The position numbers were made by a program, and so were the translations under genes. The notes under the pieces are model-generated. The model had not been told where the DNA came from. It saw only the letters and a program-made list of their open reading frames with translations, and ran no database searches. A stretch of 14,566 nt of DNA from Candidatus Woesearchaeota archaeon (GTDB lineage: Archaea > Nanobdellota > Nanobdellia > Woesearchaeales > GW2011-AR15), in NCBI GenBank assembly GCA_038874655.1, contig JAVZBY010000007.1, forward strand, positions 1-14,566, in the 5' to 3' direction. Shown here one piece after another: positions 1-14,566 of this stretch. Positions within the stretch are counted from its first letter, which is position 1; each line of letters starts with the position of its first letter.

Positions 1-413
1 TTAAAGCAAATATTTTTTAATTCTAATATTTGATTTACAAGTTTGTTATAATCTAAGAAAACTTCTCTATTTTTTAAATAATATTGGTTATCTATTCTTA
101 TTTCTTTATCAGTTTCAAGCTCTTTGCTAAAACCATTAGGGATTATCTTTTTTTGCTCTAAAAATTTACAAATTTCGATTGTGCAATCATGAATTTCGCA
201 TTTTATCCCTATTCTCATAAGAATTGAATAGATAGCAAAATATTTACAATAGTATTTTGTAGTAGCAATCCAAACTTTTGATTTACCCTCAATTGTTTTT
301 AAAATATCAAGTGTTTCTTCAGCTGTTTGAATATATTCTTTTGCTAAATTTTCATTTGGTTCTATTTTTTTAATACCTTTAGATTGCTTTTTGCACCAAT
401 TTATTGTTACCAT
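1..413 (-). CDS. HEPN domain protein (putative toxin of an MNT-HEPN pair), 3'-truncated by the window edge
   Basis: Manual translation from ATG at 413: MVTINWCKKQSKGIKKIEPNENLAKEYIQTAEETL...WIATTKYYCKYFAIYSILMRIGIKCEIHDCTIE...DKEIRIDNQYY, open to base 1. It has HEPN-type YY..., H and Rx4Y motifs. Its start overlaps the stop of the MNT gene (ATGGTAA). Confidence 0.85.
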   Translation of the reverse strand, partial: MVTINWCKKQSKGIKKIEPNENLAKEYIQTAEETLDILKTIEGKSKVWIATTKYYCKYFAIYSILMRIGIKCEIHDCTIEICKFLEQKKIIPNGFSKELETDKEIRIDNQYYLKNREVFLDYNKLVNQILELKNICF

Positions 414-970
414 AAAAACCACCTTAAAAATAAATCTGCTCCTTTAATAATTAAATGTTTTTTAATTATTTCTTCTTTCAAGGTAATAGAAATATCTTCT
501 AAGTTTTTTACTTGAATAAGATGTAATTCTAAATTATATCTTTTTTTTATAAGATCAAGATTGTTTTTGTCAATATTTCCTATATACAAAATATCAATAT
601 CTTCTGCTTGATCAAAATCTTTTGATGCTGAGCCAAATATTAATACTAAATTTGTTTCATTTTGCTCATTAAAGAAAGAAATTAACTCTTTCAAACGAAG
701 CCATTTCTCAGAAAAATATATTAATTTTTCATTTTCAGAATTAACTAAATAATAGAATAAAACAGGATTATTAAAATTTAAGTAATATAACGAGAGTTTA
801 CCCCTAGTTTCTTTTTTTAATATAGCTTTTTTTTCTAATTCATTTAGTCTTAATCTTAAAGATGTATGATTCATACTAAGCTCTCTTGCTAATTCATTAA
901 GATGCATTTTTTCTTTAGGTTTATGTAAAAAAGGCCATAATGCAGAATATATTGTTAATTTTTTAACCAT
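407..970 (-). CDS. Winged-HTH + minimal nucleotidyltransferase (MNT) protein, putative antitoxin
   Basis: N-terminal wHTH (HLNELARELSMNHTSLRLRLNELEKK) and Pol-beta NTase motif FGS...DID (LIFGSASKDFDQAEDIDIL). Translationally coupled to the HEPN gene. Confidence 0.85.
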   Translation of the reverse strand: MVKKLTIYSALWPFLHKPKEKMHLNELARELSMNHTSLRLRLNELEKKAILKKETRGKLSLYYLNFNNPVLFYYLVNSENEKLIYFSEKWLRLKELISFFNEQNETNLVLIFGSASKDFDQAEDIDILYIGNIDKNNLDLIKKRYNLELHLIQVKNLEDISITLKEEIIKKHLIIKGADLFLRWFLW

Positions 971-3122: not shown

Positions 3123-3461
3123 TTAAAATCTTGTATTGTTTTTTACAAAGCTTTGTCCTTGTTTTATGTGTAAATATAAAAATGCATAATAGTAATCTTT
3201 ACTAAAAATAACTGCGCTATTGAAAAGGTCTATATAAAAATGATGTTTAGGTACTAATAAGTTAGGTATATAAGAAGCGGCAGCTTGAAATAGATTAAAT
3301 TTATGAGATAAATATTGTTCATAAATTTCTCTTTTAATTCCAATTAGAATCTCTACATTTTTTTCAGAATATGTAATCTTTATAACTGATTGTTTATCAT
3401 ATGAATATAAAAAGGATGTTAAACCTTTTTCTAATACTTTAATTAGTTCAGATAAATTCAT
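3123..3461 (-). CDS. Hypothetical protein
   Basis: 112-aa ORF starting 7 nt downstream of tfe on the same strand. No recognisable motif. Confidence 0.55.
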   Translation of the reverse strand: MNLSELIKVLEKGLTSFLYSYDKQSVIKITYSEKNVEILIGIKREIYEQYLSHKFNLFQAAASYIPNLLVPKHHFYIDLFNSAVIFSKDYYYAFLYLHIKQGQSFVKNNTRF

Positions 3462-4723: not shown

Positions 4724-4742
4724 AACCGCAAAGCTTTTATAG
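4724..4742 (+). promoter_or_regulatory. BRE/TATA promoter of the arvABC operon, leaderless geometry
   Basis: AACCGCAAAGC followed by TTTTATAG (4735-4742), about 26 nt before ATG 4764. Confidence 0.6.
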
Positions 4743-4763: not shown

Positions 4764-5390
4764 ATGTTTGAATTTTTAAAAAAAGCATTTGGGAATTTTT
4801 TTAATAAATTGTTTAAAGGAAAGAAGAAGATAAAATTAGGTTTATATGGGCCACCTAATGGAGGAAAAACAACCTTAGCTAATAAAATATGTATGGACTG
4901 GCTTGGCGAAGAAATGGGGACTGCTTCTCCTATTGCTCACGAAACTAGGGAAATTCAAATTAAAGAGCAAATTACAATTAAGTCAAATGGAAAGGAATTG
5001 ACTTTTAATTTGGTTGACACACCTGGAATTGCTACCAAGATTGATTACGAGGATTTTTTAAAGTATATGGATGAGAAAGATGCCAAGCAAAGAGCAAAAG
5101 AGGCAACAAAAGGTGTTATTGATGCTATAAAATGGCTAGATGATATGGATGTTGTTATTATTGTTTTAGATGCAACAAAAGATCCTTATAGCCAAGTTAA
5201 TTTGACAATTATAGGAAATTTGCAGGCAAGAAATATTCCTGTTTTGATTGTTGCTAATAAAATTGATTTGAAGAAGGCAGATGTTAAAAAAATACAAGCA
5301 GCTTTTCCACAATATAAGGTTGTTGGAATCTCAGCAAAATTTGGAACCAATATGGACGAGTTTTATGAAAGCCTTATTGCTTTAGCATAA
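4764..5390 (+). CDS. arvA: Small Era/Ras-like GTPase ArvA (OapA)
   Basis: G1 GPPNGGKT, G2 HETR, G3 DTPG, G4 NKID, G5 SAK. Family motifs RAKEATKGVIDAIKWL and LDATKDPYSQVN. N-terminal amphipathic helix. First gene of an operon with DUF2073 and DUF2072 genes. Confidence 0.9.
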   Translation: MFEFLKKAFGNFFNKLFKGKKKIKLGLYGPPNGGKTTLANKICMDWLGEEMGTASPIAHETREIQIKEQITIKSNGKELTFNLVDTPGIATKIDYEDFLKYMDEKDAKQRAKEATKGVIDAIKWLDDMDVVIIVLDATKDPYSQVNLTIIGNLQARNIPVLIVANKIDLKKADVKKIQAAFPQYKVVGISAKFGTNMDEFYESLIALA

Positions 5391-5419
5391 GATTTTATTG
5401 AAATTAAAAAAGTTTTTAA

Positions 5420-5839
5420 TTGCATAAAATAATAAATATGAAAAAGAGGAAAAAAATGCTAACCTTACAATTTATTCCTTATAGTGAAATTGCTCATTTA
5501 AGCACAGAGGAAAGAATAAAAAAATTGTTGCAGTTAGCAAAAGATGAAAAAATTATTTTGATTGAAGGTAGAATTAAAGAGACAGAAAAAGCTGAGTTGA
5601 TTAAAAGAACAATGGAGAATATTGATGAAAAGTTTAAAGGAATTGAATTAGAAGATGTTAGTTTAGATAAAAAAAATAAAAACTTGTATGAAAAATTGCA
5701 TAAGTTTTTAGTTAAATTATTGTTGGGGAATAGAGAGGGTTTTACTATAATCGGACCTGCGAATATTGTTAGAGAGATTAAAAAGGATCCTGATAAAATT
5801 CAATTATATACAAAAGATATTTCTAAATCTAAAAAATAA
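5420..5839 (+). CDS. arvB: OapB/ArvB (DUF2073) family protein
   Basis: ERIKKLL...IILIEG...ELIKRTMENID..FKGIE and FTIIGPANIV motifs. The more likely start is ATG 5456 (MLTLQFIPY), preceded by AGAGGA. Confidence 0.85.
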   Translation: MHKIINMKKRKKMLTLQFIPYSEIAHLSTEERIKKLLQLAKDEKIILIEGRIKETEKAELIKRTMENIDEKFKGIELEDVSLDKKNKNLYEKLHKFLVKLLLGNREGFTIIGPANIVREIKKDPDKIQLYTKDISKSKK

Positions 5840-5863
5840 GAAATATAAAAATAGGATATAAAA

Positions 5864-6259
5864 ATGCCACACCAGTGTGTTAGATGCGGAACTTTTTATC
5901 AAGATGGTAGTAATGAGATTTTAAAAGGTTGTAAATGTGGAGCAAAATTGTTTTTTTATGTTAAGAAAGAGAAATTAGATGAGATGAAAGAAGTAACAGC
6001 AAAATTAACTAAAAATGAAAAACAACAGATTGAAAAAGATGTTTTTGATATTATTGGACTGCAAGAAACTTATGAAGAGCCAGTTGTCTTGGATTTGGAA
6101 TCTATAAGAATACAAAAACCAGGGAAATATGAAATTGATTTAGTTAGTTTGTTTAAAGAAAACCCTGTTATTTATAAGTTAGCAGAAGGAAAATATGTTA
6201 TTGATTTGCCAGAAACATTTAGTAAATTGAAAAATGAGAATAAAAAGAAGAAAAAATAA
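5864..6259 (+). CDS. arvC: OapC/ArvC (DUF2072) Zn-ribbon protein
   Basis: MPHQCVRCG...ILKGCKCGAKLFFY Zn ribbon, and C-terminal ESIRIQKPGKYEIDL..LF...EGKYVIDL. Confidence 0.9.
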   Translation: MPHQCVRCGTFYQDGSNEILKGCKCGAKLFFYVKKEKLDEMKEVTAKLTKNEKQQIEKDVFDIIGLQETYEEPVVLDLESIRIQKPGKYEIDLVSLFKENPVIYKLAEGKYVIDLPETFSKLKNENKKKKK

Positions 6260-7660
6260 TTAGATTATGTCATTAATATCATAAAGCAATACATTTTCTT
6301 TTTTTGCCAGTTCTTTCATTTTTTTATTAAAGCCTGACTTTGAGAAGAGAGCAAATTTTTCGTTTATTTTTTTGTTTTTTCTATCTTCTAGTTTATAATT
6401 TACGAATTTGGATTTTTCTTTTAGTTCATAATAAACATCAATATCAACTAAAGAGTTTTGCCATTTGCACTCTGCAAATAAAATTTCGTTTTTTTCCTCA
6501 GAGATTCCAATTATATCTATTTCTTTGTCCTTGTGCCACCATCTACCTACTAAATCGTAATATTTCTCATTTATAATTTTTTGTCTGGATATTTCTTCAA
6601 AACCAAAGCCAAAAAAAGAATTTATGTTGTTTTTAATATTATTAATTATATAGGAATAGTTATTTTGTTCTATATAACTTATATAAGGATAAATAAATCT
6701 AAACCAAAATTTAATAATATTGGATTTTATTTTATAAACAGAATTTCTTGTGTTTTTGTTATCAGTTATAGGAATTTCTCTTTCAATAATCTCATAATAA
6801 TTCAATAAATCATTCATAAAATCTGTTATTTCTGTTTGATGCTTTCGTAAATAAGAAGAAATTTCATTTAATTTTGTTTTTCCTTGAGAAATTGCTGATA
6901 ATATATCAAAATAATAACTTTTTGTTTTTCCAAACTCCTGCCTTAAAATGTTAATTACTTCGTTTTGTAAAGGTGCATTTTCCCTTAAAAATAAAAATTC
7001 AATTACTTCAAAAAAATCTTTTTCAAGTAAATCATAATCTTCTAGAGCAATATAATATTTAGGATATCCTCCAAAAATACTAAAAAATTTTACAATTTCT
7101 TCTTTTTTTTGATTCTTATTTTCAAAAAATTTTATAGTATCTTTAAAAGCTAAAGATTTTAATTTTAGTTCTTGATTAATTCTCCCATATAAAGGGCTTT
7201 TTAAATCTTCAAAAACATTTTTTATTAAGCCAATTAATGAGCCTAAAAAAATGAACATTATTTTTTTATTTTTATTTTCATCAATTTTTTTTTGCATATA
7301 TGAAAAAAAAGCTTTATATATATTATTCATATATTGAACTTCATCAAAAATAATAACATAATTTTCACAATAATTAAATAAGATTTCAATAAACTCCTCA
7401 ATTGATTGAAGTTTTCTAAAATTATCAATTATCTTTTTTTCCTTTAAAATATTTTCAAAATCTTGCAATAATAAATTTAAACTTTTTCCATCATAAATAA
7501 AAAAATATAAATGGTTTTTGTCTTTACTAAATTCTTGAACTAATCTTGTTTTTCCTATTCTTCTTGGACCATAAATAACAACAGAGATTAATCTATTTTT
7601 TGAAAGAAGATATAAATTATTTAACTCAGACAGCTCTTTTTCTCTATTAATGAATTTCAT
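6260..7660 (-). CDS. Archaeal (MJ-type) P-loop ATPase with wHTH and DUF234/PD-(D/E)xK nuclease-like C-terminus
   Basis: FINREKEL start, Walker A GPRRIGKT, Walker B IIFDEVQY, SPLYGR, GGYPKY, FWFRFIYP, GRWW..EIDI..FAECKW and FSKSGF. Confidence 0.9.
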   Translation of the reverse strand: MKFINREKELSELNNLYLLSKNRLISVVIYGPRRIGKTRLVQEFSKDKNHLYFFIYDGKSLNLLLQDFENILKEKKIIDNFRKLQSIEEFIEILFNYCENYVIIFDEVQYMNNIYKAFFSYMQKKIDENKNKKIMFIFLGSLIGLIKNVFEDLKSPLYGRINQELKLKSLAFKDTIKFFENKNQKKEEIVKFFSIFGGYPKYYIALEDYDLLEKDFFEVIEFLFLRENAPLQNEVINILRQEFGKTKSYYFDILSAISQGKTKLNEISSYLRKHQTEITDFMNDLLNYYEIIEREIPITDNKNTRNSVYKIKSNIIKFWFRFIYPYISYIEQNNYSYIINNIKNNINSFFGFGFEEISRQKIINEKYYDLVGRWWHKDKEIDIIGISEEKNEILFAECKWQNSLVDIDVYYELKEKSKFVNYKLEDRKNKKINEKFALFSKSGFNKKMKELAKKENVLLYDINDII

Positions 7661-8056: not shown

Positions 8057-8653
8057 TTAAGAATTAATATATTTTTCAATAACATTTTGGTAAAGTTGAT
8101 TTAAATACCTACCAGGTTCTGCTGCTATTTTTGTATCATCTTTAATCCCTAAATACTTTGCTACAGCTTTTCTATGAGAATCTTTTGTATTATCATATCC
8201 TCTAAAAATAAATTCTGCTGCTTTTTCTTCAAGTAATTGTCTATGCCTTTCATTAGTTTGTTTAACCTTTTGTAGGAAATCTTTTTCACCAACAGACTTT
8301 AAAATTGCTTCTTTATTTGGCAAAAATATATTATCAATTAAATGTTTTATAAACTCATCTTTTGCTAACTCATTAGTATTAACATATGCATGTAACGGAT
8401 GCATTTCATTTTTATATGATAACAACTCATCAATTTTTGCTCTTAAAGCATCTTTATCCTCTTTGCTTAATTTATAATGATGTTCAGGTGGTAAATTTTT
8501 TTCTTTAGTGAATCTTATCACTTCACTCCAGATAGAACCAGATAAGGCCTCTAAATACATCATACTTCTTTGTGTTAATTCATGCCTGCTTATAATAAGA
8601 TCTTCTAGTGTTGAATGATCCTCAAAAGAAGGCTTTTTTTTCTCATCTGACAT
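8057..8653 (-). CDS. Hypothetical soluble, helical protein
   Basis: 198-aa ORF with a strong SD (AAGGTGA) just upstream of the ATG. No family recognised. Confidence 0.75.
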   Translation of the reverse strand: MSDEKKKPSFEDHSTLEDLIISRHELTQRSMMYLEALSGSIWSEVIRFTKEKNLPPEHHYKLSKEDKDALRAKIDELLSYKNEMHPLHAYVNTNELAKDEFIKHLIDNIFLPNKEAILKSVGEKDFLQKVKQTNERHRQLLEEKAAEFIFRGYDNTKDSHRKAVAKYLGIKDDTKIAAEPGRYLNQLYQNVIEKYINS

Positions 8654-8744: not shown

Positions 8745-9068
8745 TTAATTAGTTTTATTAAATTTTTTTAAATGAAATTTTTTTCTTTTAAAGAAATAAA
8801 TAATTGTTAAAATAAGTGTAATTGTGGTCAAGTAAATCCATAAATTTAAAGCAGTAATGCCACCAGTAATGTCTTTCATTGTTTTGTTATAGCCAAGAAA
8901 TAAGCCAACAGCTATGTCTATGCAGATACTTAAAACAAAACCTAATGCAATTTTTTCTAATTGTTCTAATTCATCAAAGAAAATTAATGCTAGAAGATAG
9001 CCAGGGATAAATAAAGCTAATGGCAAACCTATTATTACTCTTAAGATTTGGATTATTGTTTCTATCAT
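8745..9068 (-). CDS. DUF1616 membrane domain protein (N-terminal TM half)
   Basis: LRVIIGLPLALFIPGYLL...LEKIALGFVLSI...GL.L signature, about 3 TM helices. ATGA overlap with the upstream gene. Confidence 0.8.
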   Translation of the reverse strand: MIETIIQILRVIIGLPLALFIPGYLLALIFFDELEQLEKIALGFVLSICIDIAVGLFLGYNKTMKDITGGITALNLWIYLTTITLILTIIYFFKRKKFHLKKFNKTN

Positions 9069-9895
9069 GCTCTAAACCTCAATGCAGCATTCCATGGAAG
9101 TGAGTAAACAATTTTAGTTTTTTCACAATCAACTGATTCTTTTTCTTTTCCTATATCTGCAATTAATTTGTTTGCATATATTTTTTCATCGCCAATTATT
9201 ATGTAATTAATGTATAAATTTCTGTCCAATGTTTCGTTTTTGAAGTCATTGTCAAACACAATGTCAATAAGATCATATTCTTCAATTGTGATGTTTGTAT
9301 TTATTAATTCTGGTTCGTTCAAGGTTTTATTAAATATTTCTATGCCATTTTTTCTTATTTTTAGGTTGCTATCATTACCTGAGGCATTTATTGCTAATAA
9401 ACCCGTTAGGTTTATTTTAGGCACACAGTCAATTAATGCGATGTAATCTGGATATTTAAAAACAATATCCTCATTATAAACAAAGAAATGAATGTCTTGT
9501 AAAGAATCATTTTTAGTTTGTTCTACTGTTGTTTTAACTTTTACTTTTTTTACTTCTGGAATTTTATAAGATAATGTTAGATTTTTGTATTCTTCTTTTT
9601 TTACAAAAACATTTTCTTGATATATTGTTTCAGATTTATTTTCGCTTGCTGTTTCATATTCTAGAATTATTTTTAAATTATAATATGTGTCGTTTTTTTC
9701 ATGGTTTGCTATTGTAATGTTAAAAAAATATTCTTGATTTGGTTTTACTGAAAAAGGCAATGATTTATGGTTTGTGTAATATAGTTCAGTAAAATATTCT
9801 GGTTCTGGTCTGAGGAAAATTAATGATAAGATAACTACAAATATTCCAATAATTAAAGCAATAATCATTGCATTGTATAGAGATTCATCTTCCAT
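9065..9895 (-). CDS. Membrane-anchored surface protein: DUF1616 C-terminal-like domain + CBM60-like carbohydrate-binding module
   Basis: N-terminal TM helix followed by PEPEYFTELY...P...IANHE...Y. C-terminal IVFDND....DRNLYINYI motif. Many NxS/T sequons. Confidence 0.7.
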   Translation of the reverse strand: MEDESLYNAMIIALIIGIFVVILSLIFLRPEPEYFTELYYTNHKSLPFSVKPNQEYFFNITIANHEKNDTYYNLKIILEYETASENKSETIYQENVFVKKEEYKNLTLSYKIPEVKKVKVKTTVEQTKNDSLQDIHFFVYNEDIVFKYPDYIALIDCVPKINLTGLLAINASGNDSNLKIRKNGIEIFNKTLNEPELINTNITIEEYDLIDIVFDNDFKNETLDRNLYINYIIIGDEKIYANKLIADIGKEKESVDCEKTKIVYSLPWNAALRFRA

Positions 9896-10227: not shown

Positions 10228-11304
10228 ATGAAGACTTGTGTTTTACATATAGGTAAATATTACGAACCATATCTCGGCGGAATGGAATCATTTACATATT
10301 CTTTATATAAGGAATTAGAAAAAAAAATTGATTTAAAGGTTATTTCTTATAATACTATTAGAAAAACAGAAATTTTGAATGAAAAATATAAAAAAGTTAT
10401 TAAAATAAGTAATTTATTTAAATTTAGATCACAGCCAATTTCTATTTCTTTATTTTTTTGGCTTAAAAAATTACTTAAAGAAGTTGATATAGTTCATGTT
10501 CATCATCCAAATCCTTTGGTAGAATTTTATTTATTACCCTTATTAAAAAATAAAAAACTCATAGTTACTTATCATACTGATATAGTAAGACAAAAATTTT
10601 TAAAAAAATTATATTCTCCTTTTTTGTATAAATTTTTAGATAAATCTTCTCATATTATTGCTACAAGCCCAAATTATGTTAAAAGTTCAAAAATTTTACA
10701 AAAATATAAAAAAAAAGTTGTTGTTATTCCTTTGGGATTAGCTCTTGATGAAATTAGAAAGAATAAAATTAAAGATAATTTAGATTTAAAGAAAAAATAT
10801 GGAGATTATATACTATATGTTGGTAGATTGGTTTATTATAAAGGAGTTGAATATTTGATAAAATCTGCCAGATATATAAAAAACAATATCTTAATTATAG
10901 GAACAGGGCCATTAGAAAAAAAATTAAAAAAAATTGCACCAAAAAATGTTATTTTTTTAGGAAAGGTTCCATATCTTGAGTTATACTATCAAAATTGTAA
11001 GTTATTTGTTTTACCTTCATCAGAAAGAACTGAAGCATTTGGAATGGTTATTTTAGAAGCAATGTCTTTTGGAAAGCCAATTATTTCAACAGAATTAGGA
11101 ACTGGAACAAGTTTTATAAATATAAATGGTAAAACAGGTTTTGTTGTAAAACCAAAGGATGAAAAAGAATTAGCAAAAGCAATAAATAAAATATTATGTG
11201 ATGAAAACTTATATAAAAAATTTTGTAAAAATTCTTTATATAGAGTAAAAGAATTTGATATAAAAAAAATTGCAGATTCTTATTTGAGGTTGTATTATGA
11301 ATAA
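10228..11304 (+). CDS. Glycosyltransferase family 4 (GT-B)
   Basis: HIGKYY.P..GGME, HVHHPNP, TYHTDIVRQ, VGRLVYYKG and EAFGMVILEAM (Ex7E). Confidence 0.92.
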   Translation: MKTCVLHIGKYYEPYLGGMESFTYSLYKELEKKIDLKVISYNTIRKTEILNEKYKKVIKISNLFKFRSQPISISLFFWLKKLLKEVDIVHVHHPNPLVEFYLLPLLKNKKLIVTYHTDIVRQKFLKKLYSPFLYKFLDKSSHIIATSPNYVKSSKILQKYKKKVVVIPLGLALDEIRKNKIKDNLDLKKKYGDYILYVGRLVYYKGVEYLIKSARYIKNNILIIGTGPLEKKLKKIAPKNVIFLGKVPYLELYYQNCKLFVLPSSERTEAFGMVILEAMSFGKPIISTELGTGTSFININGKTGFVVKPKDEKELAKAINKILCDENLYKKFCKNSLYRVKEFDIKKIADSYLRLYYE

Positions 11305-12250
11305 TAAAAAGATTTGTTTGATTGCAAGTGCGGGAGGCCATTTAAATGAAATATTAGAATTCAAAAAATTTATTGACAAGAATCTAATTTATATAGTAAC
11401 TCAAAAAAGAGAAGATTCCTATAGTTTGAATTATAAAAATATATATTTTATTCAAGATACAGGCAGAAATTTTTATCATGTATTAAAAAATATTTATGAT
11501 AGTTTTAAAATTTTCTTGAAAGAAAAACCAGATATTGTTATTTCTACAGGTGCTGGTTCTGCTTTAGAAACTATGTATATTGCAAAATTATTTGGGAAAA
11601 AGGTTATTTTTATAGAAAGTTTTTCTAGATTCAATTCTTTATCTTTAACAGGTAAGCTTATTTATCCTTTCGCAGATAAATTCTTTGTTCAATGGAAAAG
11701 CATGTTAAAATATAAAAAAGCTGAATATATAGGACAATTATTAACAATTGAACCTAAAAAATATAAAAAAGAAAAAAAAACAATTTTTTTAACAGTAGGA
11801 ACTAGTAATAAACCTTTTGATAGATTAATAAAATTGGTTGATGAAATGGCTTTAAAAGAATTAAAAGATTATAAAATATTTGGACAAATTGGGGCATCAA
11901 AGTATTTACCTAAAAATTTTAATTATGAAAAATATTTAACTACAAAAGAAATGGAAGAGAATTATAAAAACTCTGAAATTGTTATTTGTCATGCAGGAAC
12001 TGGCTCAATAATAAATGCTTTAAATTATGGTTGTAAGGTGTATGTTATGCCTAGATTAAAAAAATATGGAGAAAATGTAGATGATCATCAGTTAGAAATA
12101 GCAGAAGAATTTGAAAGAATAAATTATATATCAACTTTTACTGATAAAGATGAATTTTTTAAAAAAATGAAAACTGAAAAAAAAATTGAAGAACAAAAAA
12201 AAAATTTTAATTATAATATTCTTCTAAAAGAAATTCAAAATGAAAAATAA
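11297..12250 (+). CDS. Fused Alg14-like (PssD/Cps14F) + Alg13-like (PssE/Cps14G, GT28-C) glycosyltransferase
   Basis: N-half SAGGHL...ISTGAG...FIESFSR..SLTGK..FFVQW. C-half IFLTVGT..PFDRL..QIG..HAGTGSI..PRL..YGE.VDDHQ. Confidence 0.9.
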   Translation: MNNKKICLIASAGGHLNEILEFKKFIDKNLIYIVTQKREDSYSLNYKNIYFIQDTGRNFYHVLKNIYDSFKIFLKEKPDIVISTGAGSALETMYIAKLFGKKVIFIESFSRFNSLSLTGKLIYPFADKFFVQWKSMLKYKKAEYIGQLLTIEPKKYKKEKKTIFLTVGTSNKPFDRLIKLVDEMALKELKDYKIFGQIGASKYLPKNFNYEKYLTTKEMEENYKNSEIVICHAGTGSIINALNYGCKVYVMPRLKKYGENVDDHQLEIAEEFERINYISTFTDKDEFFKKMKTEKKIEEQKKNFNYNILLKEIQNEK

Positions 12251-13301
12251 AATCTTAATTATTGGAGCATTACCACCGCCAATAGGAGGAATGGAAACTT
12301 TTGTAAAGATTCTTTCTGAATTAAAATTTGAAAATTTTGAAATTAAAATTATGAATGTCGCAAAAAATAAAATTATAAAGTTAAACATTTTTTTTAATGT
12401 TGCAAATTTTATATATAGATGTTTTAAATTAATTTTTCTTATAATTTTTTTAAATCCTTCAATTGTACATATAAACTTAACAAGTAATAAGGATTTTTTA
12501 CAAAAAAAATATTTTTTTTATATAGCAAAATTTTTTAAAAAAAAAGTAATAGTTCATAATCATGGTGGAAATTTTATAGATTTCTATCAAAATAGTAAAA
12601 ACAAAAAAGAAATTGAATATATCTTTAAAAAAGCAGATAAAGTTTTAGTTTTAACAGATTCTTGGAAAAAAAAATATTTGGATTTATTTAATTTAAATAA
12701 TATTGATTTTATTTATAATCCATTAGATAAAAATTTATATAGATATATTCAAAAAAAAAAAGTAAAAAAGAATTTTATTGTATTATATGTTGGTAGATTA
12801 GAAAAAGAAAAAGGTGTTTATGACTTATTACAAGCCATCACCCTAGACAACTCAAAAGACACAAAGTATGTTTTTGTTGGTCCTTTTGAAGATAAAAATA
12901 AATTTTTTAGTGAGGTTGAAAGATTAAAAATAAAAGATAAAATTGAAGTTGTTGGTGAAGTAATTGGAGAAGAAAGATTTAAATATTTTGCTTCTGCTGA
13001 TGTATTAGTATTGCCCTCTTATGCAGAAGGTTTGCCAATGGTTATTTTAGAAGCTTTTGCTTTTGGATTGCCAGTTATCTCAACAAAAGTAGGTGGAATT
13101 CCTGATGTTGTTAAAAAAGAAAATGGGATTTTAATAAATCCGGGAGATGTAAAAGCATTAGCAAAAAGTATAAAAAAAATTAAAGCTTCAGATTTAAATA
13201 AATATAGAAAAATCAACATGAAAGAATCTGAAAAATATAGTGTTGATAAATTTAAAGAAAAGTTGGAAAAGATTTATGAAGACTTATTGAAAAGAAAATG
13301 A
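12240..13301 (+). CDS. Glycosyltransferase family 4 (GT-B)
   Basis: PPPIGGM, HNHGG, VGRL...KG and LPSYAEGLPMVILEA..GLPVISTKVGGIP. Confidence 0.92.
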   Translation: MKNKILIIGALPPPIGGMETFVKILSELKFENFEIKIMNVAKNKIIKLNIFFNVANFIYRCFKLIFLIIFLNPSIVHINLTSNKDFLQKKYFFYIAKFFKKKVIVHNHGGNFIDFYQNSKNKKEIEYIFKKADKVLVLTDSWKKKYLDLFNLNNIDFIYNPLDKNLYRYIQKKKVKKNFIVLYVGRLEKEKGVYDLLQAITLDNSKDTKYVFVGPFEDKNKFFSEVERLKIKDKIEVVGEVIGEERFKYFASADVLVLPSYAEGLPMVILEAFAFGLPVISTKVGGIPDVVKKENGILINPGDVKALAKSIKKIKASDLNKYRKINMKESEKYSVDKFKEKLEKIYEDLLKRK

Positions 13302-14566
13302 AAAATTTTATTAAAAAAAATTATAAAAAAATTTTGATATTATTATTAATTTATGTAATGCTTTTTTTTTATAATTTTCCTCTAAATACAAAACCGAATC
13401 AATATGATACTTATGTTTATATGAGTTTAGCGAATGATATTAATAATAAAGGTTATATTCAATGGACTTTGTCTCCTTTATCTTTAACAGGATTTTATCC
13501 AAATTCTTATCAAACAGGTGGAATTTTATTTTTATCAGTTTTAAAAAGCTTACTTGCTTTAGATTATGAACCCTTGATATTTATATTTGATTTTTTTTCA
13601 ACAATTTATTTTTCAATAATAATATATCTTTTTTTAAAAAAATTAATAAAAAAAACTAACTATTTTTTATATATTTTATCTTTATTAATATTTTTATTTT
13701 CTAAATATGTTCTAGGAAATTTAAATTTAGTTTTTCATGTAAGAAGTGTATTTTTAATGTTTTTTTTAATTATTATTTATATCTTATTTTTAAAATTTAA
13801 AAATAAAAAAATATTATTCTTAATTTTATTTGCATTTTCAATAATATTACATAGAATGTTTATTTTAATTTTTTTAATTTTATTTTCATATTATTTATCA
13901 AAAGTAATCTTTTCTTTTTATATTAATAAAAAGTATGAAAATTATGCTTTTTTATTAGAAATTTTTTTATTTTTTAGTTCTATTATTTTATTTTTTATAT
14001 CAATAAACAAAGTTGGTATAATTGAATTAGGACAAAATTTAACAATATATGATATTTCAACAGAAACTTTATTAGGAAAAATAGTAATAACTTTAATAAG
14101 AATTATATTTAACACAGGATTTTATTTCATTTTTTCTATAATAGGATTTTTTTATTTAATTTTTAAAAAAAATAAAAATTTTGAAGAAATCTTTATCTTA
14201 CTAAGTTTTTATTTGTTTATACCTTTACTATCTGAAACAACTTATTTACCTTATTTATTAACAATATTTTATGTTCTAATTTTAATAATATTTATTTATG
14301 ATTTAATTGATTTTAATATTTACAAGATTAGGTCAAATTTTTTTATAAATGGAAATAATTATTTTTACAAAAAAATAATTTTTATATTTTTTCTTTTTTT
14401 AATAATTTTACCTCTTTTTATACAATTTAGACCAAACATTCAATTTTTTAAAAAAAATGAAATTAATTACTATAATTATAAAGAAACAGACAATTTAAAA
14501 AAATTTTTAGTTAATAATTTAGAAAAAGATTATAAAATTACTTGTAATTCAATTTTATATTTATTT
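13298..14566 (+). CDS. Multi-pass membrane protein, GT-C-like (or polymerase-like), truncated by the window edge
   Basis: ATG 13298 overlaps the upstream TGA (ATGA), and the frame appears open to the end of the window. One TM helix, then loop NQYDTYVYMSLA..INNKGYIQWTLSPLSLTGFYPNSY, then many hydrophobic segments. Missing from the ORF track. Confidence 0.75.
   Translation, partial: MKNFIKKNYKKILILLLIYVMLFFYNFPLNTKPNQYDTYVYMSLANDINNKGYIQWTLSPLSLTGFYPNSYQTGGILFLSVLKSLLALDYEPLIFIFDFFSTIYFSIIIYLFLKKLIKKTNYFLYILSLLIFLFSKYVLGNLNLVFHVRSVFLMFFLIIIYILFLKFKNKKILFLILFAFSIILHRMFILIFLILFSYYLSKVIFSFYINKKYENYAFLLEIFLFFSSIILFFISINKVGIIELGQNLTIYDISTETLLGKIVITLIRIIFNTGFYFIFSIIGFFYLIFKKNKNFEEIFILLSFYLFIPLLSETTYLPYLLTIFYVLILIIFIYDLIDFNIYKIRSNFFINGNNYFYKKIIFIFFLFLIILPLFIQFRPNIQFFKKNEINYYNYKETDNLKKFLVNNLEKDYKITCNSILYLF

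Follow-up and report, generated by a model that had tools for sequence, protein, structure and literature searches.

Introduction

The arvABC genes of archaea, which are also called dipABC and oapABC, encode a small GTPase, a DUF2073 protein and a Zn-ribbon DUF2072 protein. The present analysis concerns such a locus at positions 4764..6259 of a 14,566-nucleotide (nt) stretch of DNA from a Candidatus Woesearchaeota archaeon (contig JAVZBY010000007.1, assembly GCA_038874655.1). This whole stretch is called the window below; it is 14.6 kb out of a longer contig, and its 18 open reading frames (ORFs) were scanned with Pfam. The name OapABC was reportedly given by Wolters et al. in 2019. In Haloferax volcanii, the three proteins are HVO_3014, HVO_3013 and HVO_3012, which were named ArvABC by Mills et al. 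(2024, PNAS) and DipABC in the preprint of He et al. (bioRxiv, May 2026).

Two sets of experiments describe these proteins. Mills et al. (2024) reported that vesicles were lost in an H. volcanii arvA knockout and were 3.5-fold more abundant upon arvA overexpression, and that knockouts of arvB and arvC gave 3.13-fold fewer and 1.65-fold more vesicles, respectively. The vesicles were enriched in ArvA, FtsZ2 and a PRC-barrel protein, while ArvB and ArvC are not among the vesicle proteins that the paper reports; it was proposed that ArvC is a GTPase-activating protein (GAP) and ArvB a guanine-nucleotide exchange factor (GEF). He et al. (2026), on the other hand, reported that deletion of any dip gene resulted in minicells and in misplaced FtsZ1, FtsZ2, SepF and CdpB, and that DipA overexpression gave minicells and small debris. 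DipA, DipB and DipC all oscillated from pole to pole, and Walker A or Walker B mutants halted the oscillation. In the same preprint, DipA of Archaeoglobus fulgidus hydrolysed GTP and bound liposomes with GTP but not with GDP, and the binding was weakened by the helix substitution L7R. A. fulgidus DipB was a dimer that took DipA off liposomes and boosted its GTPase activity, and a positively charged DipB loop (residues 73-85 in A. fulgidus) bound the membrane in this species and in H. volcanii. The location of DipC depended on DipA and its overproduction blocked FtsZ1 filaments; its purification failed, which is the step still blocking the mechanism. The authors' model is that of a Min analogue without homology to Min. 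The view that ArvB and ArvC are functionally undefined, taken in a preliminary description of the window made from the sequence alone, is therefore out of date.

Mills et al. (2024) detected ArvA in 1,666 genomes, which belong to 14 phyla, 7 of them DPANN, and it was accompanied by ArvB in ~95% and by ArvC in 91% of these genomes; their Table S12 has 256 occurrences of the label 'Woesearchaeales', 163 of 'Pacearchaeales' and 518 of 'Nanoarchaeota'. In contrast, the available text of He et al. (2026) gives the system among DPANN for Nanohalarchaeota only, and in the supplement files with the PubMed Central copy no row of their set of 766 genomes matches Woesearchae or Pacearchae. There is thus a gap between the two studies, since the Dip preprint is without the lineages for which the Arv paper has 256 and 163 rows. 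Because the system itself, the order of its genes and its occurrence in this archaeal order have all been published, neither the triad nor its presence in Woesearchaeales is new. Our literature search found no paper on Dip function in Woesearchaeota, and on FtsZ in Woesearchaeota it gave no usable statement, the main text of Pende et al. (2021) naming DPANN once. A Dip function in Woesearchaeota is a direct extrapolation, not a discovery.

Identification of the arvABC locus

Three neighbouring ORFs were found on the + strand of the window (4764..5390, 5420..5839 and 5864..6259). They are listed here in amino acids (aa), with the start of the second one as corrected below and with the putative ribosome-binding sites of the second and third.

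4764..5390, + strand: arvA (dipA, oapA), 208-aa single-domain small GTPase, Pfam MMR_HSR1
5446..5449, + strand: Shine-Dalgarno-like sequence GAGG, 6 nt ahead of the arvB ATG
5456..5839, + strand: arvB (dipB, oapB), 127-aa DUF2073 protein, PF09846
5853..5856, + strand: Shine-Dalgarno-like sequence AGGA, 7 nt ahead of the arvC ATG
5864..6259, + strand: arvC (dipC, oapC), 131-aa DUF2072 protein, PF09845

MMR_HSR1 was the best Pfam match of ArvA with 54.2 bits (cut-off 21.9). ArvB matched PF09846 (OapB/DUF2073; COG3365) with 65.3 bits (cut-off 27) over profile positions 2-100 of 104, and ArvC matched PF09845 (OapC/DUF2072; COG3364) with 86.0 bits (cut-off 23) over positions 1-132 of 133. He et al. 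(2026) recognise the system by at least two of PF01926, PF09846 and PF09845 with at most one intervening gene; judged from the Pfam scores, the window has all three profiles above their gathering cut-offs on adjacent genes. The preliminary description had read a complete triad of co-oriented genes from a DPANN-like archaeon, comprising a GTPase with intact G1-G5 motifs, a DUF2073 protein and a Zn-ribbon DUF2072 protein. ORFs, Pfam matches and invariant motifs agree with that reading, and only the arvB start had to be corrected. The mechanical ORF call begins at TTG 5420, and another possible start is the ATG at 5438. The true start is most likely ATG 5456, because GAGG precedes it by 6 nt, the nearest homologue (94% identity) has 127 aa, and the consensus of 121 homologues starts with MLTLQF. 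Taken together with the tree described below, we regard it as close to certain that this locus is the arvABC/dipABC/oapABC operon of a Woesearchaeota-type (DPANN) archaeon.

The locus was compared with that of H. volcanii through published descriptions of HVO_3012-3014. Both have the same three families in the same order, and in both ArvA carries an N-terminal amphipathic helix. H. volcanii DipA has GPPNAGKT at residues 31-38 and DTPG at 87-90, and the window ArvA has GPPNGGKT at 29-36 and DTPG at 85-88. ArvB has 127 aa here and 130 aa in H. volcanii. A Zn ribbon and a conserved C-terminal domain are common to both ArvC proteins, but that of the window has 131 aa as compared with 330 aa in H. 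volcanii, a 40-residue linker standing in place of the long serine-rich disordered one, as is usual outside Halobacteria. The term 'origin-associated' does not apply here because no orc1/cdc6 gene adjoins the triad in the window: none of the 18 ORFs has an Orc1/Cdc6 match in Pfam, and the intergenic regions hold low-complexity AT-rich repeats only. A. fulgidus DipA and DipB belong to the same families in the compact non-haloarchaeal form, and this pair is probably the better model for the window operon. The Woesearchaeales and Pacearchaeales loci of Mills et al. (2024) are direct relatives, which differ in flanking genes only.

Conservation of the triad and source lineage

A scan of species-representative genomes gave at least 512 confirmed relatives among 600 pattern matches, and the best 80 loci (designated by L numbers below) were kept. 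Their ArvA proteins show 64-85% identity, and all are Woesearchaeota/Nanoarchaeia-type metagenome-assembled genomes. This lineage, and a G+C content of 13-28% along the window, bear out the AT-rich, DPANN-like source that had been proposed. The NCBI labels of the 80 loci are Woesearchaeota (40), Nanobdellota / Nanoarchaeia (16), 'Uncultured Methanosarcinales' (13), no rank (8), and Acidobacteriota, Methanobacteriota and Aenigmatarchaeota (1 each). Odd deposit names ('uncultured Methanosarcinales archaeon', 'Acidobacteriota bacterium', 'Aminicenantes bacterium') occur on contigs with Woesearchaeota-type arvABC (L009, L015, L033, L036, L041, L042, L046, L050-L052, L060, L065, L075, L079 and L080). 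These labels look like naming or binning errors, because those of the contigs that are in the ArvA tree group among Woesearchaeota rows.

The triad was mapped by running hidden Markov models, built from homologues, on all ORFs of the 80 loci. The order arvA-arvB-arvC on one strand was found in 74 of the 80 loci, or 74 of the 76 with room for the triad, since in L009, L054, L060 and L073 the contig stops before the missing gene. In the other two, L061 (4938-6050) and L067 (4992-6074), arvC directly follows arvA with gaps of 96 and 54 nt, and arvB was not found in the 4.8-5.0 kb of locus downstream of arvA. The ArvA proteins of L061 and L067 are sisters with 99% support in the Shimodaira-Hasegawa-like approximate likelihood-ratio test (SH-aLRT), so that the two cases look like one event of loss or relocation. 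If arvB is truly absent there, a GTPase and its cargo would be left without the detaching factor. A similar absence of dipB in Methanoregula was described by He et al. (2026).

Flanking genes are not kept. The five window ORFs of at least 100 aa within ~2.3 kb either side of the operon, namely a 112-aa ORF, TFE-alpha and DUF3467 upstream and an ATPase_2/DUF234 protein and a 198-aa ORF downstream, have homologues in 0 of the 80 loci. Among all 15 non-operon window ORFs of at least 100 aa, only a radical-SAM gene and two GT4 genes recur, in 2 of the 80 loci each. Given that the A-B-C order is kept while the flanking genes do not recur, arvABC appears to be a self-contained module. The neighbours that recur elsewhere are genes of repair or housekeeping besides two unknown ones, namely the two unknown genes (27 of the 80 loci), a YchF/Obg-like GTPase (21), HerA (18) and an Mre11-like phosphoesterase (14); no division or vesicle genes were seen among the recurrent neighbours of the 80 loci. 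The two unknown genes, which encode proteins of ~234 and ~202 aa without a Pfam match, are located upstream of arvA, and in 23 of the 27 loci they are on the opposite strand, as in L054:3516-4220 (-) and L058:2979-3587 (-). The HerA-like and Mre11-like genes are often farther upstream. The window does not have this arrangement.

The GTPase ArvA

The motifs of the GTPase and its N-terminal segment are as follows.

4764..4829, + strand, residues 1-22: MFEFLKKAFGNFFNKLFKGKKK, predicted amphipathic, cationic membrane-targeting helix (from the hydrophobic moment)
4848..4871, + strand, residues 29-36: G1 (Walker A) GPPNGGKT; G29, N32, G34 and K35 invariant in 67 aligned sequences
Residues 59-62, + strand: switch I HETR, from the sequence and invariant columns
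5016..5027, + strand, residues 85-88: G3 (Walker B) DTPG; D85, P87 and G88 invariant
5256..5267, + strand, residues 165-168: G4 NKID, guanine specificity; N165, K166 and D168 invariant
Residues 190-192, + strand: G5 SAK, from the sequence and invariant columns

The alignment of 67 family members, with identity down to 35%, contains 18 invariant columns. The N-terminus is amphipathic and basic: residues 1-18, with a net charge of +3, have a hydrophobic moment of 0.545, residues 6-23 (+7) have one of 0.551, the moment of residues 2-19 was matched by 101 of 10,000 shuffles, and the N-terminal moment ranked in the top five of 191 windows along the protein. At least 18 residues precede strand 1 in 64 of the 67 aligned rows, in which the median best moment was 0.63 and the median charge +6. 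This predicted helix corresponds to the membrane-targeting sequence that the L7R mutant probed in A. fulgidus DipA.

Of the 120 listed clusters (90% identity level), one is the window's own ArvA, and the other 119 share 76-95% identity with it. The named clusters are almost all from Candidatus Woesearchaeota or Nanoarchaeota, and the ArvB and ArvC listings are alike in this respect. A search of 1.84 billion representatives showed a compact family, with 564 matches at E <= 1e-3, 146 at E <= 1e-10 and 55 at E <= 1e-30. Full-length relatives at 35-55% identity included proteins named from Methanobacterium formicicum (~54%), Thermoplasmatota and Altiarchaeota, with no haloarchaeon among the named ones. 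NCBIfam has no model for ArvA, ArvB or ArvC; ArvA scored 63.2 bits for Der (cut-off 306.7) and 54.0 and 41.4 bits for Era (cut-offs 237 and 116.25). The nearest solved GTPases were Der (9.3e-8) and Era (1.9e-5).

A quick maximum-likelihood tree was made of 39 rows, comprising the window, 24 of the 80 loci, 12 distant representatives and, as the outgroup, two Der G domains. The 37 ArvA-type rows were separated from Der by a branch of 2.33 with 96% SH-aLRT support. The window ArvA fell in a clade of 25 Woesearchaeota-type rows (98%) as sister to L001 and L002 (96%). This clade also contains L040, a contig of 'archaeon SM23-78', which we equate by the shared strain name with GCA_001595785 (GTDB SM23-78, Woesearchaeales). 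Table S13 of Mills et al. (2024) numbers the ArvA, ArvB and ArvC genes of this genome 366, 367 and 369, and the corresponding genes of H. volcanii GCF_000025685 are numbered 2987, 2986 and 2985. The gap of 694 nt between arvB and arvC in L040 agrees with the published gene distance of 3. On this placement, the window GTPase is a member of the published ArvA family, as the preliminary description had supposed.

ArvB and ArvC

The ArvB alignment (A3) has 23 invariant columns in 121 sequences. AlphaFold2 predicts four strand-helix units for ArvB, with a mean pLDDT (the predicted score in the local distance difference test) of 83.8. The C-terminal tail of ArvB is lysine-rich (consensus ...KxKK). 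When PDB sequences were searched with profiles of the two proteins ArvB and ArvC, nothing came under E 0.087, and therefore the two proteins have no solved relatives by this measure.

ArvC consists of an N-terminal Zn ribbon, a charged helical linker of 40 residues and a second conserved block at residues 73-119.

5876..5938, + strand: ArvC Zn ribbon, C5-x2-C8 ... C23-x-C25, the four cysteines invariant in 120 of 120 sequences

Twenty-three columns are invariant among the 120 aligned sequences, including L76, D77, P86, G87, F97, P101, G109, Y111 and D114. The length of 131 aa, which had been called compact, is normal for a non-haloarchaeal protein: He et al. (2026) give a mean DipC length of 131.5 +/- 19.6 aa outside Halobacteria (n = 152) as compared with 276 +/- 61 aa in Halobacteria. 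Among its nearest relatives the window protein is even slightly long, as the 120 closest sequences have a median of 125.5 aa and a range of 123-136 aa.

Proposed GTP-driven membrane cycle

The gene identities, family membership, conserved linkage, motifs and predicted amphipathic helix come from the sequences analysed here. For the window operon, homology to the H. volcanii and A. fulgidus proteins is the basis on which we infer that ArvA binds the membrane with GTP, how ArvB acts, that ArvC affects FtsZ, and any oscillation. ArvA-GTP would put its N-terminal amphipathic helix into the membrane, and membrane-bound ArvA would recruit the Zn-ribbon protein ArvC. ArvB, probably as a dimer, would speed up GTP hydrolysis and strip ArvA off the membrane. 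In Haloferax, this cycle gives an oscillation from pole to pole in the manner of Min, by which DipC, the inhibitor of FtsZ1, is kept from midcell and the division ring is placed. The vesicle phenotype of the arv genes is probably a further output of the same membrane and division activity, so that one activity would lie behind both Haloferax phenotypes. FtsZ2 and a PRC-barrel protein are enriched in the vesicles, and DipA overexpression gives minicells and debris. From these comparisons we consider it reasonably probable, with considerable room for doubt, that the operon drives a GTP-dependent membrane cycle whose main output is division-site placement.

In the model of He et al. (2026), the likeness to bacterial MinCDE is one of roles, with DipA as the membrane binder (MinD), DipB as the stripping activator (MinE) and DipC as the cargo that antagonises FtsZ (MinC). 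The two systems are not homologous: ArvA belongs to the TRAFAC-type GTPases and has NKxD, whereas MinD is a ParA/MinD ATPase, and the ArvA helix is N-terminal whereas that of MinD is C-terminal. No Min, ParA or CbiA family was present among the Pfam matches of ArvA, ArvB and ArvC.

Several points weigh against division-site placement. The experimental evidence stems from H. volcanii and A. fulgidus, with no DPANN copy among the proteins studied, and the Dip work is a preprint. The two Haloferax studies, as far as their available texts go, give differing phenotypes, vesicle loss and minicells, which are unreconciled. The FtsZ link comes from a genome set that is without Woesearchae or Pacearchae rows (He et al. 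2026). A tubulin signature was found in no ORF of the window or of the 80 loci (up to 5 kb of flank per side). Cells of the Woesearchaeota lineage are very small, which may leave no room for a pole-to-pole wave.

Points of the same kind come from the ArvB and ArvC proteins themselves. The positive loop at residues 73-85 of A. fulgidus DipB has no clear counterpart in most Woesearchaeal ArvB proteins. Mapped by model position, it would correspond to the variable loop 69-79 (SLDKKNKNLYE, window 5660-5692). The net charge of this loop is +1 in the window's own copy, but it is positive in only 18 of the 121 Woesearchaeal sequences and neutral or net negative in the other 103 (median -1), unlike the lysine-rich tail. 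The likeness to SepF that has been reported for ArvB did not reappear here, as Foldseek against PDB gave 0 matches at E <= 0.001 and placed SepF of M. smithii (7al1) at rank 37 with E 0.77 and template-modelling scores of 0.30/0.40. ArvC alone folds with low AlphaFold2 confidence (mean pLDDT 60, and below 50 at residues 79-91, 93-95 and 104-110), which would fit a C-terminal block that folds on a partner.

We also predicted the complex of ArvA, GTP and Mg with ArvC as the scored partner and 3 controls. The scores were 0.59, 0.61 and 0.59 as compared with 0.01 for the best control, with a contact agreement between runs of at least 90% and a partner pLDDT of 66. In calibration, 116 of 157 solved complexes came up to the mark, as did 2 of 215 mismatched pairs. 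Scores of 0.60 or under comprised 18 of those 157 solved complexes and both passing mismatches, and the author-made alignments and ligands of the present run depart from the calibration set-up. The prediction thus weakly supports binding of ArvC to ArvA. It is mild support and no more, because the in vivo dependence of DipC on DipA had made binding likely beforehand.

The identification matters for annotation. Near-identical database proteins have uninformative names such as 'Era-like GTP-binding protein', 'DUF2073 domain-containing protein' and 'Zn-ribbon containing protein'. The annotation of these genes should now be arvABC/dipABC, for a GTPase module that cycles on the membrane and is tied to FtsZ-ring placement and vesicle release, and not a ribosome GTPase. 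Compact DPANN proteins may also be easier to handle than those of Haloferax, ArvC having ~125-131 aa and no long disordered linker.

Alternative explanations

The preliminary description had framed ArvA as a vesicle GTPase. This frame is published (Mills et al. 2024) and stands as one of two readings, the other being divisome positioning (He et al. 2026). When vesicle budding is taken as the primary role, ArvA would act like Arf/Sar1, in that helix insertion with GTP bends the membrane and releases RNA-carrying vesicles, with ArvB as a positive and ArvC as a negative regulator. The knockout and overexpression counts of Mills et al. (2024) and the enrichment of ArvA in vesicles point this way, and so does the amphipathic N-terminus of the window ArvA. 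Eukaryotic Arf and Sar1 likewise have an N-terminal amphipathic helix, which inserts into the membrane in a GTP-dependent manner. SAR1 chains gave weak matches to ArvA residues 2-60 only (window 4764-4943; E 1e-4 to 1e-3), and the Pfam Arf model scored 27.2 bits against a cut-off of 22.3, yet no single stretch passes. However, the remainder of ArvA is nearer to Der and Era, which are also the nearest solved GTPases overall, and no Arf-type GAP or GEF domains are present. The G3 motif of Arf-type proteins, WDxGGQ, is unlike the DTPG of ArvA. Furthermore, the same Haloferax mutants and overexpression strains show minicells, cell debris, oscillation and misplaced FtsZ (He et al. 2026), so that the counted vesicles may partly be a by-product of division. 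ArvB and ArvC, the supposed regulators, were not found in the vesicles in the data of Mills et al. (2024), and the vesicle data come from Haloferax, not from DPANN. We consider vesicle budding as the primary role unlikely, while granting it a real chance.

A second alternative keeps the GTP switch but not the wave. In ultrasmall Woesearchaeota, the module could be a non-oscillating switch that marks a single division or budding site, or a scission or vesicle device. This view is suggested because the cells are probably too small, most ArvB proteins are without the positive loop, and L061 and L067 have no arvB nearby. In that case the arvB-less lineages would be natural experiments. Our estimate is that this is improbable, although worth keeping in view.

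It had also been suggested that the triad is a host-interface module of a symbiont, which would reshape the membrane where the two cells meet, ArvB and ArvC serving in it as regulators or coat partners. What speaks for it is circumstantial, namely the DPANN lineage and the surface-glycan genes of the window (GT4, an Alg14/Alg13-like fusion and DUF1616). On the other hand, the DUF1616 ORFs and the Alg14/Alg13-like fusion have no homologue in the 80 loci, and the GT4 genes are among the few that recur at all, in two loci each. Pfam gave no secretion signal or adhesin-like domain for ArvA, ArvB or ArvC. Halobacteria, Methanobacteria and Archaeoglobi, which are free-living, carry the triad just the same, and therefore its core role is not symbiosis-specific. 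The suggestion thus finds no support in gene context or domain content, and we regard it as very unlikely.

Finally, an Era/Der-type ribosome-assembly GTPase with an incidental linkage to two small genes deserves next to no credence: the names 'Era-like GTP-binding protein' and '50S ribosome-binding GTPase' on close homologues, the best Pfam match MMR_HSR1 and the solved Der and Era relatives favour it, but the NCBIfam scores are far below the equivalog cut-offs, the single 208-aa G domain has neither an Era-type KH domain nor the tandem G domains seen in Der and leaves no space for a second domain, 74 of the 80 loci keep the GTPase linked to PF09846 and PF09845 while the flanks change, and the A. 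fulgidus homologue binds membranes (He et al. 2026).

Expression signals

A promoter-like element precedes arvA.

4726..4742, + strand: BRE/TATA-like promoter element, CCGCAAAGC (4726-4734) and then TTTTATAG (4735-4742), from the sequence; BRE is the transcription factor B recognition element

The element ends 21 nt ahead of the arvA ATG, and at this distance transcription would begin at about the ATG and the arvA mRNA would be leaderless. The stretch AAAGCTTTTATA is common to the window and L001, in which it lies 1 nt farther from the ATG. The 100 nt upstream of arvA contain a BRE/TATA-like pattern in 47 of 78 loci, as compared with 35 of 1,520 random 100-nt windows from the same loci and a mean of 2.2 in 78 shuffled upstream regions; note that the window's own element is one letter short of the strict pattern used for this count. 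Because TATA-like strings are frequent in such AT-rich DNA, the element is regarded as a putative promoter.

A second BRE/TATA-like sequence, AAAAAGTTTTTAAT, is located at 5408-5421 (+) in the 65-nt spacer between arvA and arvB, ~35 nt before the arvB ATG. Most other loci have tight junctions at this place, a rough comparison since their ORFs were called from the first possible start. For hvo_3014, He et al. (2026) refer to a minor start of transcription within the 3' part of the gene. Given this start and the position of AAAAAGTTTTTAAT in the spacer, an internal promoter for arvBC is possible. The preliminary description had placed all three genes behind one BRE/TATA promoter. The element itself is there, and a single operon with one promoter, in which arvA is leaderless and arvB and arvC have their own ribosome-binding sites, is a reasonable reading of the sequence; the possible internal promoter qualifies the word 'one'. 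Downstream, a convergent gene (6260..7660) has its stop codon starting one base after the end of arvC.

Other features of the window

No tRNA genes or Rfam families were found in the window. DUF1616 (PF07760) is spread over two ORFs on the - strand (8745-9895) that overlap by 4 nt and have the profile in swapped order, the upstream ORF (9895..9065) matching profile positions 150-277 and the downstream ORF (9068..8745) positions 20-121. The pair could be a split, permuted membrane protein or two diverged paralogous fragments. A 317-aa ORF at 11297-12250 (+), flanked by the two GT4 glycosyltransferases, combines an Alg14-like domain (PF08660) with Glyco_tran_28_C (Alg13-like), and this region looks like a surface-glycan cluster. 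It is followed by a polytopic membrane protein (13298..14566) that has no Pfam match and runs off the window.

Two ORFs on the - strand, at 3123-3461 (112 aa) and 8057-8653 (198 aa), have neither a Pfam match nor a homologue in the 80 loci. At the other end of the window, a protein with a nucleotidyltransferase domain is encoded at 407..970 (-), its Polbeta match of 25.5 bits being just below the cut-off. A 140-aa ORF downstream on the same strand, without a Pfam match, overlaps this gene by 16 nt and runs off the window. The layout of the two (3-970) is reminiscent of a nucleotidyltransferase/HEPN pair.

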